From Candidatus Thorarchaeota archaeon (lineage in GTDB: Archaea > Asgardarchaeota > Thorarchaeia > Thorarchaeales > Thorarchaeaceae): a DNA stretch of 34,810 nt. The notes beneath the pieces were generated by a model. It did not search any database. It had not been told where the DNA came from and saw only the letters and a program-made list of their open reading frames with translations. The DNA is taken from NCBI GenBank assembly GCA_048882045.1, contig JBHLRZ010000030.1:1-34810 (forward strand), given 5' to 3'. The translations under genes and the position numbers were made by a program. The first letter of the stretch is position 1. Every line of letters starts with the position of its first letter. This document shows, piece by piece, positions 4,323-33,964 of the stretch.

Positions 4323-4397
4323 GGAACAACGACTTGCAATACCTCTGATATTCCTATCGAAACCACAGCTTCATATCAGAACAATGCCTCTGAAAGC

Positions 4398-4895
4398 GTG
4401 ATGACCATTCGAGAGATTCTCAAGCTGGGCAATCCTCTTCTGTATGAGACATCCTATGAGGTAGAGGAGTCAGAATTAGAGAACATTCGAGAAGTGGTCA
4501 AAGATCTTCATCACACAATGATGGCCTTCAGGACACGTTATGGGGTCGGTAGAGCGATTGCAGCCCCTCAGATCCGAGTCATGAAACGTATCGTATACAT
4601 GCACATCGACTCACCTGTTGTCTTTCTCAATCCTATCCTTAAGAACAGGAGCGAAGAGATGATAGAGCTCTGGGATGACTGTATGTGCTTTCCAGACCTA
4701 CTAGTAAGGGTCAGGCGACACAAAAGCTGTACAATCGAATTTCGAGACATGGATTGGAATCTCAGGTCCATAGACCTTGAGGATGATCTCTCAGAACTTC
4801 TCCAGCATGAGTATGACCATCTTGATGGTATATTGGCAGTCATGAGAGCAATAGATGGAACTTCCTTTGCTTACAAGGACCAAGTTCCAAGGTAA
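4398..4895 (+). CDS. def: Peptide deformylase family protein (divergent motifs)
   Basis: ILKLGNPLL, GVGRAIAAPQI, F.NP.L, DDCMCFP (in place of EGCLS) and QHEYDHLDGIL. Confidence 0.88.
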   Translation: MMTIREILKLGNPLLYETSYEVEESELENIREVVKDLHHTMMAFRTRYGVGRAIAAPQIRVMKRIVYMHIDSPVVFLNPILKNRSEEMIELWDDCMCFPDLLVRVRRHKSCTIEFRDMDWNLRSIDLEDDLSELLQHEYDHLDGILAVMRAIDGTSFAYKDQVPR

Positions 4896-29828: not shown

Positions 29829-31556
29829 TCAGATTGAGAAATTGACAAACACTGTGGCGCCATTCTTCATGGATCCAACATAGGCTCGCTCATAGGGTCC
29901 AAAGAGATCTACAAATCCTGAATTGATTGCCCACTCAATCCAAGACCAAGACGACTCTTGACCTAGTTTATTTTCTGCAAATTCACCGAATGTCCAGCTC
30001 AGATATCTCTCGAGATCAAGTTTCACAAACTGGAGTTTCTCCTGTTCCTCTGCCGAAGAGGTCGATATCTTTTCTGAAACATCATCAAGAGATTTTTGCA
30101 GTTTTGCATGGGTGTCAAGAATCAGCCTTCCGAGTTCTTCCAACTTTTCGTTCATCTTGTCATCTTGTTGCTTTTTCCTGAACCTCGAGGCCTTGCCCAT
30201 GATGCTAAACATATCACCTCTATGAAGGACCTCTATCCCTTCCTTCTCGAGGCTCTTCGCCAGAGCCTCGTTCCATGGTGTATTGAAATAGATTCTTGGG
30301 TATTTCACGAAGAGTGGGAATGGTATAGACATGGCTGCTACTGATGGAATGATTTGGGCATAGTAGGCCGCCTCCCCTGGTCCTCCCACATGTGCCACAG
30401 TTGGTATGATGGTATCGACCAACATCTGTCTTGAGTCTACTCGGGGAGAGATGAGTGAGGCAATCTCTCCAAGAAATGGACTGTCAGCTGAAGTTTCAAT
30501 CTCTACAGGTTGCGAACATGTAGGACATTTCCCTCTGAGTATTGCTGTCGAACCTCTCTCCTCATAGTGGAGTTCAGTCCTGCTAGAGTTACAACCTGGT
30601 TCTGGACATTCGTAGAAGAAGGGCACATAGTCTGGATCACGACGCCCAATACCAGTACTATATCCACTACTCTCGATAAGATCAGTGATCTCTCCATGGG
30701 TCTTCAGGAATCGGTCTCTGTTATCCCTAGCTAACAAGAACTCCATGCCTTCCACCAGCAGTTCACGTATTTTCTTGTGGGATGCTGGGACCAGTGGAAT
30801 TCCCAGGTTTCCTACAACATTGAAGAGATGTGCCATGATTCGTTGAGACCACTCTCCAAGGGTGGATGTGCTCAGGAATGATTGTCTTACGCTTGTAATG
30901 GCCTGTTCAAGTCGTTCTTCGAATAGAAGACGTGAGTTGCCCTCAATGACCTTGAAGATTGGTCTGTAGCTTGATCTAAGGTCATCTTCGATTTGGTTCA
31001 ACCAATCGTGTCCTGGTAGTGGGATCACACTTACAGGGGAATTTTCGTACCCTTCTGGTACTGGAATACTTACGAGATTTCCATTCGAACCCATGATTGG
31101 TGTTCGTATATTTGTGAGTTCAGTCTGCACAATGTCATAGTCAGCCACACAGAAGAAAGGAGTGAGTGGAATCCCTCTGTCTGTTGAAAGTGAAGCCACA
31201 CGCACAGCAGTAATGGCCTTGTTCAGAATATATGCGGGACCTCCCATCACAACTGTTTGGTGCGCTGATTCAACTGCACCATCTGAGAGGTTGTTGATGT
31301 TCTCCACTACTTTAGGTGTCAATGCTCCAAGATCTCTGTTAACTTCCATCAGAGTTTCTTGAAGTATAGTATTCCTTTCTGGAATGTGCCAAAGTGTGTC
31401 CTTGTAGGCATTCAGAAGTGCAGGCGCTCTGTCAGCGACAGCATCCAATGTGATTGGTGGTGAATCATAGAGTTTCTCTGCGAGTTCTTGGTTTGCACCA
31501 TTCCAGACGAACTCTTGGTAGATGTCAAAGACACTCGGTTTCAATGTGAACCTCAT
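29829..31556 (-). CDS. bshC: Bacillithiol biosynthesis cysteine-adding enzyme BshC homolog
   Basis: SAHQ.V.MGGPAY...KAITA (compare bacterial TGQQ/HQ.GL.GGP.Y...K), PFF..AD.D, PTVAHVGGPGE.AYYAQ and P...PR; directly downstream of bshA. Confidence 0.88.
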   Translation of the reverse strand: MRFTLKPSVFDIYQEFVWNGANQELAEKLYDSPPITLDAVADRAPALLNAYKDTLWHIPERNTILQETLMEVNRDLGALTPKVVENINNLSDGAVESAHQTVVMGGPAYILNKAITAVRVASLSTDRGIPLTPFFCVADYDIVQTELTNIRTPIMGSNGNLVSIPVPEGYENSPVSVIPLPGHDWLNQIEDDLRSSYRPIFKVIEGNSRLLFEERLEQAITSVRQSFLSTSTLGEWSQRIMAHLFNVVGNLGIPLVPASHKKIRELLVEGMEFLLARDNRDRFLKTHGEITDLIESSGYSTGIGRRDPDYVPFFYECPEPGCNSSRTELHYEERGSTAILRGKCPTCSQPVEIETSADSPFLGEIASLISPRVDSRQMLVDTIIPTVAHVGGPGEAAYYAQIIPSVAAMSIPFPLFVKYPRIYFNTPWNEALAKSLEKEGIEVLHRGDMFSIMGKASRFRKKQQDDKMNEKLEELGRLILDTHAKLQKSLDDVSEKISTSSAEEQEKLQFVKLDLERYLSWTFGEFAENKLGQESSWSWIEWAINSGFVDLFGPYERAYVGSMKNGATVFVNFSI

Positions 31557-31562
31557 CCTCCC

Positions 31563-32723
31563 TTATGATACCACATCTTCGAATACTTTCTCGTACTTAT
31601 CTACAATCTGCTTGGACGAGAATGATTCTTCCACACGTTTTCTTCCAGCCTCTCCGAGACTCTTTCGTTTTGAGTCATTTTCTAACAGTTCTATAACTGT
31701 CTGAGCATATTCCTCCTGTTCGAATCCTTTTGTGACCGCCCCATCCTTCCCTGGACGCACGAGTTCAGGAATACCTCCTGCAGGTGTTGTTACCACTGGA
31801 AGACTACATGACATCGCTTCCAAGAGCACTAGTGGCATTCCTTCCAGTGTAGAGTTCAGGAGGAACATATCAGCGGAGCACATTATCTCCTGCATGTTAC
31901 TCTTCACGCCGAGTAAGTGTACATTGTTGCAGAGGTCCAAAGCCTCTATCTTTCTCTCCACTTCAATACGAGTTGGACCATCACCTGCGATGATCAACCG
32001 CACTTCAGGAAAGTGGTCAACGATTATCCTCATGGTTTCAATCAGTTCCACCACTCGCTTGACCTTTCGGAAGTTTGATGCATGGAGGAGAATCTTCTCC
32101 CCTGGATTGATTTCTGCAGCATCCGCTTCTGAACGGAGTCCGACACATCCACTCTCGACGATCAACCGCACACCACTCAGAGGTTTGAACCTTTCAACAT
32201 CTATGAAATTGGGAATCACATGTATTTCTCTCTCGATTCCGAGCTCCTCGTGAGCCTTCTTCTTCAGAAACTCGGAAACTGCAGTGACAGCATTGGCTTC
32301 CTCAACGGTATGTTTCACAACTGGTTGGTATGCTGGGTCTAGACCCAATGTGTGAACATCTGAACCATGTAATGTGACAACGTATGGTATCCCAATAATC
32401 TCCCTCGCCATGTATGCTGACATTGCGTGAGGAATCGCATAGTGGGAATGGACCACATCCAGTTTCGAGGACTTCGCGACTTTGATAATCTTGGAAGCGA
32501 GTGCCATGGCATAGGGTGGTCCAGTGGTCTTGAACAACGGATAATCAAACCGGTCGACGAGATCCACGTGTACTCCAGTCGTCTGCTCCCACATGAGAGA
32601 GAAGGGTCTCTGGTAGGTGATAAAATGTATAATGTGGTCTCTATGGGCCAGTTCCTGGCCAAGACGTGTGGCGAGATGTCCTGAGCCACCGACTGAGGGA
32701 TAAAGGTTGACTCCTATTCTCAT
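31563..32723 (-). CDS. bshA: N-acetyl-alpha-D-glucosaminyl L-malate synthase BshA (GT4 glycosyltransferase)
   Basis: RIG...YPSVGGSG..AT.LG.ELA...H..HFIT...PF, YPLF...PY...LASK, HSHYAIPHA, TLHGSD and HASNFRKVKRV, which is the diagnostic BshA pattern. Confidence 0.93.
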   Translation of the reverse strand: MRIGVNLYPSVGGSGHLATRLGQELAHRDHIIHFITYQRPFSLMWEQTTGVHVDLVDRFDYPLFKTTGPPYAMALASKIIKVAKSSKLDVVHSHYAIPHAMSAYMAREIIGIPYVVTLHGSDVHTLGLDPAYQPVVKHTVEEANAVTAVSEFLKKKAHEELGIEREIHVIPNFIDVERFKPLSGVRLIVESGCVGLRSEADAAEINPGEKILLHASNFRKVKRVVELIETMRIIVDHFPEVRLIIAGDGPTRIEVERKIEALDLCNNVHLLGVKSNMQEIMCSADMFLLNSTLEGMPLVLLEAMSCSLPVVTTPAGGIPELVRPGKDGAVTKGFEQEEYAQTVIELLENDSKRKSLGEAGRKRVEESFSSKQIVDKYEKVFEDVVS

Positions 32724-32833
32724 CCTTCCATACTCCTCTCTCCCTCACATCCCTCCATGCCCCTTTAAGGCAAATGGTCTGGACAAAGGTAGAGTGCCAA
32801 ACCTTGATTAGATGGTGTTAGAAAGAACTCAGT

Positions 32834-33502
32834 ATGAGCGGTTCTGATGAGGGAACAATACTTGTTGTAATTGCGCATCCTGATGATGAAACTCTGGGTG
32901 CAGGTGGAACCATCAAGAAACACGCAGAACATGGGATTCCTGTCGATGTAATCTGCATGACTGGGAATGAACAGCGGAATGAGGAGCTCAAGAGTGCATG
33001 CGGCATTCTCAGAGCGAGGAATCTGTTTCTCAGTGAACGTGACGACTTTTCAATTGACACGGCCCTAACGAACGAGGTTGTTGGAGCAATTCTAAAGTCC
33101 AGACCTAGGATTATTATCACTCATCATTCGGAGGACTATAACCGTAACCACCAGCAGTGCGCTCGCATCGTCGATGAGGCTGTGGAATGGGCCTCACACA
33201 CCACTATCTTTGATGATGCGCACAGGGTCGAGAAGATATACAATATGGAGATCAACACACTGATTTCCAGACCCAATGTACATGTTGACATCACTGATTC
33301 ATATCGAGCTGCATTGGCGGCCCTCAAAAAACACAAGTCTCAGGTCAAGAAAGCTGATACTTTCTATGAGAAACTCTATGATGCACGAACTCGTTTGCGA
33401 GGGGTTCAAGCTGATTGTGAAAGAGCAGAAGCATTCTCAATAACCCTTCCTAGACATGCTGGTCCCTTCTATCGTGAAAATAGTGTGGATCTATTGATTT
33501 AG
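32834..33502 (+). CDS. bshB: PIG-L/LmbE family N-acetylglucosaminyl deacetylase, BshB-like
   Basis: LVVIAHPDDE..GAGGTI, R..E...A..IL, VDITD, HKSQ and RG......AEAF; divergent from bshA. Confidence 0.8.
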   Translation: MSGSDEGTILVVIAHPDDETLGAGGTIKKHAEHGIPVDVICMTGNEQRNEELKSACGILRARNLFLSERDDFSIDTALTNEVVGAILKSRPRIIITHHSEDYNRNHQQCARIVDEAVEWASHTTIFDDAHRVEKIYNMEINTLISRPNVHVDITDSYRAALAALKKHKSQVKKADTFYEKLYDARTRLRGVQADCERAEAFSITLPRHAGPFYRENSVDLLI

Positions 33503-33507
33503 AGGTT

Positions 33508-33897
33508 CTATGCACCTTCAGACTTTCTTCTTCTGGCTGCGAGAAGTTGTTTGAGCTCTCCCATCATACTCATTCCACCACCAGCTCCAGCTGGTCTTGG
33601 AGTAGGTGCTTTGGCCATTGTTGGGATTGGCTCTCCACCACTAGCCGCGGCCGCTGGATCTGCAGCTGCTGCAGGTCCACGAACCGCCATTGAGGACATC
33701 CTGTTCTCCAACGCATCAACTTTGCTCTCTAAATCCATGATAGAAATCTGGATATTGGTTATGGCCTCAGTCAGCTTTGTTGTGATTATACTGACCACTT
33801 CTCCAAGCTGACGGATCTTCTCTTCATTTGGGTCTTTCAATGCCCATTCGAACTCATCCATGATTTCTGCTTCAAGCTCTTTCTTTTCATCTGGCAT
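33508..33897 (-). CDS. Small coiled-coil protein with Ala/Pro linker and C-terminal Ena/VASP F-actin-binding-like helix
   Basis: Coiled coil (ITNIQISIMDLESKVDALENRM), low-complexity linker and tail GGGMSMMGELKQLLAARRRKSE. Likely start is ATG 33897 after GGGGT; alternatives are 33921 and 33957. Confidence 0.7.
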   Translation of the reverse strand: MPDEKKELEAEIMDEFEWALKDPNEEKIRQLGEVVSIITTKLTEAITNIQISIMDLESKVDALENRMSSMAVRGPAAAADPAAAASGGEPIPTMAKAPTPRPAGAGGGMSMMGELKQLLAARRRKSEGA

Positions 33898-33964
33898 TAG
33901 AAATACCCCGTGATTTGACATGAATTGCTGTAGTCCCGCTATAAACCTTGTTTGCACTTAAGAA

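Follow-up and report, generated by a model that had tools for sequence, protein, structure and literature searches.

Asgard archaea regulate their actin with profilins and gelsolins. To our knowledge, they have no described nucleator, elongation factor, or bundler of the formin, Ena/VASP, or WH2 kind. In eukaryotes, a proline-rich region followed by a WH2 motif is the usual arrangement, and bacteria have actin assembly factors that combine oligomerization, proline-rich segments, and WH2: Burkholderia BimA, a trimeric Ena/VASP mimic, and the dimeric VopL/VopF of Vibrio. The F-actin-binding (FAB) motif of human VASP comprises residues 259-278 (PMC10340426). The WH2 signature is L-K/R-K/R-T/V, and WH2-like LRRV/LKHV motifs are found in Asgard two-domain gelsolins (PMC9433394). 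According to a 2026 study of Asgard crawling motility, comparative genomics points to gelsolins and profilins as the main actin regulators (PMC13716822).

The window analyzed here is a stretch of 34,810 nucleotides from a Candidatus Thorarchaeota archaeon (GenBank assembly GCA_048882045.1, contig JBHLRZ010000030.1). An earlier note on this DNA, made from its letters alone, had read one gene near the end of the window as a minimal actin regulator with VASP-like modules in a different order. The source genome, a MAG assigned to Thorarchaeota, measures 3.6 Mb and is 93% complete. As the note had presumed of its host, it encodes actin, with one Asgard actin (437 bits to PF00022).

The gene and its protein

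The gene lies within an open reading frame that spans 33508-33957 on the reverse strand. We placed its start at the ATG at 33897, because the Met of MPDEKK (M9 of P0001) is invariant among the aligned orthologs and the part of the frame upstream of it is unconserved, being variable or missing. The resulting 129-aa protein (P0002), together with its TAG stop (33508-33510), fills exactly the span first proposed for it. The TATA-box-like hexamer listed in Table 1 and a GGGGT 8-12 nt before the ATG, both found by reading the sequence, suggest that the gene has its own archaeal promoter and a possible ribosome-binding site.

The gene is on the same strand as, and 3' of, a phosphoglucomutase/phosphomannomutase-family (PGM/PMM) gene. 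It is convergent with a bshB-like gene (PIG-L), beyond which lie others resembling bshA and bshC. Distant Thorarchaeota members keep this order: PGM/PMM, the family gene, convergent PIG-L (bshB), GT4 (bshA), and BshC. Within the window, positions 29829-33502 hold all the genes of a bacillithiol-type set, here in an archaeal genome, and their order is the same in three distant Thorarchaeota loci (L004-L006). Two of these loci also have an Arf/Ras-like small GTPase gene three genes upstream on the opposite strand (L004:4861-5385 -, L006:4971-5513 -); the counterpart stretch falls past the end of the present window.

An AlphaFold2 (AF2) model, built on an alignment of 22 ortholog sequences, confirms the order of parts that had been read from the letters: a helical N-terminus, a coiled coil, a linker, and a terminal motif (Table 1). 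F16, in the N-terminal helix, is invariant throughout the family. The description of the linker as Ala/Pro/Gly-rich holds in part. In Thorarchaeota it is Ala/Gly/Pro-rich with 19% Pro and has no polyproline, and it is strongly Pro-rich in the Loki-type relatives only. It contains a patch conserved in Thorarchaeota (EPIPTMAKAPTP), while its length and sequence vary among orthologs. The long helix is probably an oligomerization element, and the terminal helix probably a docking element.

A Loki-type profile matched trimeric coiled-coil stalks in the PDB, namely, fragments of the trimeric autotransporter SadA (E 5e-8 and 1.6e-7) and reovirus sigma-1 (E 7e-6), with weaker matches to P22 gp26 and Lpp; the Thor profile gave only weak coiled-coil matches. 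From the Loki-type matches, our working inference is that the stalk is probably a parallel homo-oligomer, a trimer. All of these stalks share a heptad pattern with polar core positions, and the likeness is one of sequence periodicity only: The 129-aa protein is archaeal and cytoplasmic, and has no signal peptide, lipobox, anchor, or head domains. Some Thorarchaeota members are labeled “Lpp” by JGI. We reject this name, as the acidic N-terminus (MPDEKKELEAE) has neither a hydrophobic leader nor a Cys and the host is an archaeon; the resemblance to murein lipoprotein is limited to the coiled coil. The Loki-type stalk also weakly matched BRICK1/HSPC300, a WAVE complex subunit (E 0.098); this match was set aside as generic coiled-coil likeness. 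Searches of Pfam, NCBIfam, PDB sequence profiles, and the ESM Atlas returned nothing for the protein or its family beyond coiled-coil noise.

Table 1. Coordinates of the gene, its parts, its neighbors, and tail-bearing proteins (residues in P0002 numbering; positions without a locus label are those of the window).
Feature	Position	Strand	Basis
Gene, Thorarchaeota member of the Asgard-wide family	33508..33897	-	ORF list, translation, 289 homologs
TTTATA, TATA-box-like hexamer, ~43 nt upstream of ATG	33940..33945	-	Sequence reading
N-terminal helix, residues 2-21, conserved E-F-E-W-A-L motif	33835..33894	-	AF2, invariant columns
Long helix/coiled-coil stalk, residues 25-72	33682..33825	-	AF2 core pLDDT ~90, translation
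Disordered Ala/Pro/Gly linker, residues 73-110, ~40 residues	33568..33681	-	pLDDT below 50
Terminal amphipathic basic helix MMGELKQLLAARRRKSE, residues 111-127, FAB-like tail	33517..33567	-	Translation, AF2 pLDDT ~76
Terminal motif GGGMSMMGELKQLLAARRRKSE	33517-33582	-	
BshC-like gene	29829-31556	-	Bacillithiol-type set
GT4/BshA-like gene	31563-32723	-	Bacillithiol-type set
PIG-L/BshB-like gene	32834-33502	+	Bacillithiol-type set
Tail-bearing Arf/RagA-like GTPase	L043:166-1590	+	Tail profile, domains
Tail-bearing Arf/RagA-like GTPase	L046:1492-2727	-	Tail profile, domains
Tail-bearing Arf/RagA-like GTPase	L059:301-1566	+	Tail profile, domains
Tail-bearing Arf/RagA-like GTPase	L060:298-1545	+	Tail profile, domains
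Whole family module fused behind HEAT repeats	L058:1492-2721	-	Tail profile
310-aa protein of G128, three motif copies	L062:1318-2247	-	…LMMNELKGLFSRYK…, …ALMMELQRLFAARRQ…, …LIEELRLFFARRSN
Pro-rich spacer and motif near the end of an integrase-like protein	L162:211-1851	+	Whole-family profile

An Asgard protein family and its conserved tail

We find that the 129-aa protein belongs to a real, undescribed protein family. Its 289 close relatives are all from Thorarchaeota where named, and an exhaustive phmmer search of 1.8 billion representatives with the Thor protein returned only 12 clusters, all Thor-like. The wider family became visible only by per-genome profile searches, a word-indexed profile search having listed close relatives only. 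Profile matches (E ≤ 0.01) were present in 278 of 400 Asgard-phylum genomes, including 80 of the 85 from the Thor family. Many other Asgard families yielded full-length matches at 1e-9 to 1e-16, and whole-length relatives include proteins of MK-D1 and L. ossiferum. In addition, a scan of 185,579 species (one genome each), with the Loki-type alignment as query, produced 112 relatives. The best 80 of these are all labeled Promethearchaeota/-ia, Hermod-, Hod-, or Thorarchaeota, or “uncultured archaeon”, and include Promethearchaeum syntrophicum MK-D1. In the 400-genome search and among these best 80 relatives, the family is seen in Asgard archaea only.

The 18 non-Thor members that we fetched have in common an N-terminal pattern, a coiled coil, and a tail (NPVSLRGAIMGELKELFAKRKK). 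Their N-terminal pattern, M-A-E-E-F…P-x-E-E-K…G-x-I-V-E-K-I, aligns with F-E-W-A-L…D-P-N-E-E-K…G-E-V-V of Thorarchaeota. Gene neighborhoods of Loki-type members differ from those of Thorarchaeota, and comparison of Thor and Loki-type loci revealed no neighbor conserved across all lineages. In L. ossiferum and in G135, the family gene follows that of a 206-aa Elf1-type zinc-ribbon protein (see below), and in two other lineages it adjoins the gene of an unrelated 206-aa helical protein. The family gene is tandemly duplicated in a Helarchaeota genome (L033:3959-4363 + and 4368-4802 +), and tandem copies also occur in two other lineages (G124:C202 and G126:C93).

The earlier note had taken an unconserved tail, or orthologs common in lineages without actin, as evidence against its reading, and we observe neither. 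From Thor to Loki-type members, the residues E114, L115, K116, L118, L119, R122, and R123 vary little or not at all, while the linker drifts freely. L115 and K116 (with F16) are invariant across the whole family, E114 and L118 nearly so, and the most conserved element of the family is E-L-K-x-L. Even at 30-50% identity, a Thor-like tail, MMGELKxLLAARR(R/K)K, is still present, with a linker that differs in length and composition. Read from the alignments, conservation of the tail clearly exceeds chance. As for actin, two small family-bearing genomes in which it went undetected are 82% and 77% complete (G300 and G307), and genomes of the same genus (G298, G299, and G305) carry it.

The Loki-type tail reads SLRGAIMGELKELFAKRKK; the tail logos are LLAARRRK for Thor and LFAKRK[ST] for Loki-type members, the latter being partly circular, since the Loki-type set was gathered with a search pattern that included the tail. 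Several Loki-type tails have an acidic run straight after the basic cluster (KRRTDDDDDD in L. ossiferum). The two groups also differ in the segment before the tail, where polyproline runs directly precede the helix in Loki-type relatives. Linker runs of at least four prolines occur in 65 of 79 Loki-type members, and of at least five in 51 of 79, compared with none of 139 Thor-type members for runs of at least four. The Loki-type linker is 37% Pro, with typical stretches such as GGPPPPPGGPPGG and two or three repeats of PPPPPGR.

The tail also occurs on other proteins. When 15 good genomes were searched with a tail profile of 32 columns, the family gene was recovered in 14 of them, plus further proteins (Table 1). 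Four Arf/RagA-like GTPases (412-475 aa) from Loki-type genomes carry the Pro-rich-plus-helix module at their end. Each comprises an N-terminal extension, the GTPase, a coiled coil, a Pro-containing spacer, and an ELKxLF-basic end helix of the …VLNELKELFQKRKK type. A 705-aa protein (L042) has an internal motif copy after PPPPG and a hydrophobic, membrane-segment-like C-terminus, and the triple motif of the 310-aa protein is reminiscent of tandem WH2 repeats. The central part of the integrase-like protein reads by eye like a tyrosine recombinase/integrase, and the whole-family profile also matches a 336-aa Pro-rich protein (L156). In the source Thor genome, a genome search found the tail motif only once; thus, no GTPase there bears it. 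A helix that follows a Pro-rich spacer and is reused on many scaffolds would be WH2-like behavior, and would equally suit a docking peptide or a membrane anchor.

Comparison with Ena/VASP and WH2

The VASP FAB motif and the tail both consist of a Gly run, an amphipathic Met/Leu helix with a central Glu, and then Ala and an RRRK-type cluster. The FAB letters given in the earlier note are essentially right when set against human VASP 259-278 (PMC10340426). The Loki-type tail GAIMGELKELFAKRKK can be aligned gap-free with this segment; of 16 positions, 6 are identical and 6 conservative (BLOSUM62 37). The Thor tail scores 41 over 18 residues. The FAB 20-mer was scored against 17,110 six-frame ORFs of the source genome: The Thor tail took rank 2 (41), and an unrelated 486-aa ORF came first (43). 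Because this ORF outscores the tail, the FAB likeness alone is what one genome yields by chance. The proposed VASP-like resemblance is real, with a gapless alignment for the Loki-type tail and a high rank for the Thor tail, yet does no better than the best chance ORF; the likeness is without statistical significance and does not establish homology.

At the level of architecture, a Pro-rich region upstream (in Loki-type relatives only) and an oligomerizing coiled coil stand together in one protein, as in VASP. Unlike Ena/VASP, the family has no EVH1, no GAB/WH2 (KLRK), and no right-handed C-terminal tetramerization domain; its coiled coil is N-terminal and looks trimeric, and the Thor copy has no polyproline. 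Pfam searches with P0001 and 12 family members found no WH1/EVH1 family, even at E ≤ 5-10, and no match to the VASP tetramerization domain (VASP_tetra). We know of no model of FAB in Pfam. The GAB motif (WH2-like, KLRK), as a 17-mer, scores 19 on the ORF (rank 2560 of 17,110), and the AF2 model has no second helix in the linker.

The tail resembles the WH2 modules of WASP/WAVE, WIP, and MIM in being a short amphipathic helix (R-G-A-I-M-x-E-L-K in Loki-type members) followed by basic residues, in ending a disordered Pro-rich arm, and in being portable on several protein types, with tandem copies. A relation to WH2, which had been suggested through FAB, finds no support at the level of sequence: Pfam WH2 (PF02205) gave 0 families at E ≤ 10 for ten 40-aa Thor and Loki-type tails, a search in which HMMER filters may drop very weak matches. 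LKKT/V at WH2 spacing is absent from the Thor and Loki-type tail logos, as is the wider signature L-K/R-K/R-T/V, and the basic cluster comes directly after the helix. On the other hand, true polyproline directly before the tail in the relatives makes the architecture look more like that of Pro-rich/WH2-type actin factors. BimA and VopL/VopF similarly present several Pro-rich arms on an oligomeric coiled coil, each arm with a short terminal helix, which in those proteins binds actin. They have a recognizable WH2 and target host actin, whereas no WH2 is detectable in the Asgard family, for which such an activity is at most predicted. Membership in the Ena/VASP or WH2 families is therefore not supported, and the claim should go no further than that the tail may “work like” these elements.

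Candidate partners of the end helix

Published data from L. ossiferum bear on whether the partner is actin. We assigned its family member in the published tables by genome position and the molecular weights of neighbors. The gene at 2,628,799-2,629,257 corresponds to GNAMCCOK_02219, because its upstream neighbor has a computed mass of 24.03 kDa compared with 24.01 kDa for GNAMCCOK_02218, and an Arf GTPase also fits (GNAMCCOK_04696, 38.1 kDa listed, a 38.12-kDa ORF at 5,471,999-5,472,988). In the whole-cell proteome, GNAMCCOK_02219 has a mean log2 of 18.47, compared with 21.69 for actin. In a co-immunoprecipitation (co-IP) of formaldehyde-fixed L. ossiferum with a Lokiactin antibody, one profilin, five gelsolins, and one Arf GTPase were significantly enriched (PMC13716822). 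GNAMCCOK_02219 is absent among the co-IP rows listed, which run from log2 ratios of +10 to -1.06 (841 lower rows lie outside). An abundant protein that is not enriched with actin counts against a stable actin complex, although a transient or low-occupancy actin binder could be missed by co-IP. The enriched Arf, GNAMCCOK_04696 (L163:1999-2988 -; 329 aa), consists of a GTPase domain and a C-terminal domain of ~150 aa, and a reading of its sequence found no Pro-rich spacer and no ELK tail.

Just upstream of the family gene in L. ossiferum is the gene of a 206-aa Elf1-type zinc-ribbon protein (L070; G138:C1:2628036-2628656 +), with a counterpart in G135 (L050:6230-6850). This zinc-ribbon protein, GNAMCCOK_02218, was enriched in the Lokiactin co-IP (log2 1.36, adjusted p 0.034); the family member GNAMCCOK_02219 was not.

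Of the mechanisms considered, docking on actin ranks first for us, before another protein partner and then membrane binding, with a probability of roughly 0.35 that the end helix binds actin and the 129-aa protein is a multivalent actin scaffold. This reading draws on architecture and a chance-level motif likeness, and has one proteomic data set against it. The gene product would be a small cytoplasmic scaffold, whose homo-oligomeric stalk tethers several end helices per particle, each a docking peptide for a protein partner. With actin as that partner, the helix would bind in the manner of the FAB/WH2-type helices of Ena/VASP, WASP/WAVE, and MIM, its hydrophobic face (M111, M112, L115, L118, and L119) lying against actin and its RRRK cluster meeting acidic surfaces on actin. 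Being multivalent, such a particle could cross-link or cluster filaments or monomers, resulting in bundling or nucleation. Loki-type polyproline tracts could additionally feed profilin-actin; lacking such tracts, the Thor copy would be a bundler or tether at most. In published binding data, VASP polyproline is not bound by Loki, Odin, and Heimdall LC2 profilins and is bound by a Thor profilin (PMC8410842), the reverse of where polyproline sits in this family. In the Thor and Loki-type loci inspected, no actin, profilin, or gelsolin gene adjoins the family gene. Of the earlier reading as a minimal VASP-like actin regulator, the gene, its module order, the conserved tail, and the actin-bearing genome thus remain, and the EVH1, GAB, and VASP tetramerization domains and enrichment of the ortholog with actin are missing.

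Since the tail is shared with Arf-like GTPases and other proteins, other partners are possible. The end helix might dock on a non-actin hub common to the tail-bearing Arf/RagA-like GTPases, for example, a GTPase regulator or a component of membrane trafficking or remodeling, with the small protein as a multivalent adaptor or competitor. We regard this as a tentative alternative, though a serious one. The module ends all four GTPases (L043, L046, L059, and L060) and is also found on the HEAT-repeat protein L058, the integrase-like L162, and the membrane-segment-like L042; the invariant E-L-K argues for a specific protein contact; an Arf/Ras-like GTPase gene stands three genes upstream in distant Thor loci; and the L. 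ossiferum ortholog is abundant and not enriched with actin. Nevertheless, no candidate for such a hub was found, no neighbor is common to all lineages, and the source Thor genome, with its single tail, has no tail-bearing GTPase to share it.

The presence of the tail on Arf-like GTPases would also suit a membrane anchor, in which the amphipathic helix and polybasic cluster hold the stalk and the GTPases on anionic lipid, much as Ras-family GTPases use their hypervariable region and polybasic tail. An amphipathic helix followed by RRRK/KRKK at the extreme C-terminus, behind a flexible spacer, fits such an anchor, which would also be compatible with absence from the actin co-IP. Lipid-binding helices normally conserve physicochemical character only, and a strictly invariant acidic residue and E-L-K would be unusual for them. 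Together with the acidic runs that follow the basic cluster in several Loki-type tails, such as that of L. ossiferum, and the internal and tandem copies in L042 and L062, this makes lipid anchoring unlikely in our view. It is highly improbable that the tail is a MIM1-like MIT-interacting motif through which the Asgard Vps4/ESCRT machinery would recruit the protein. MIM1 and MIM2 usually sit in a C-terminal helix behind a disordered Pro-containing linker, and the tail, also a C-terminal amphipathic helix, has just this setting. However, aligned by hand, the (D/E)xxLxxRLxxL(K/R) spacing fits the tail in no register, the two ESCRT-III proteins of the source genome end in acidic helices (…RIDELLEDLEREARE…, …EEDIKALERELGM) unlike the basic tail, and no ESCRT genes are near the family gene in the Thor loci inspected.

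Returning to actin docking, a bolder form of this reading, which we hold to be a long shot, is that the Pro-rich spacer plus ELKxLF-basic helix is a pre-eukaryotic archaeal actin-binding element of the WH2/FAB type, used by a stand-alone trimer that acts as bundler or polymerase, and also by Arf-like GTPases as their output arm. With its stalk, its FAB-like helix, and, in most lineages, arms of polyproline, this conserved, abundant, Asgard-specific family is an obvious candidate for an actin factor of the kinds so far undescribed in Asgard archaea. If the bolder form is true, it would represent a prokaryotic forerunner, or an independent invention, of GTPase-controlled, profilin-fed actin assembly; its occurrence on Arf-like GTPases hints that a GTPase may connect directly to its effector. 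Should a membrane or a trafficking hub turn out to be the partner, the tail would still be a new portable docking motif in the closest archaeal relatives of eukaryotes.
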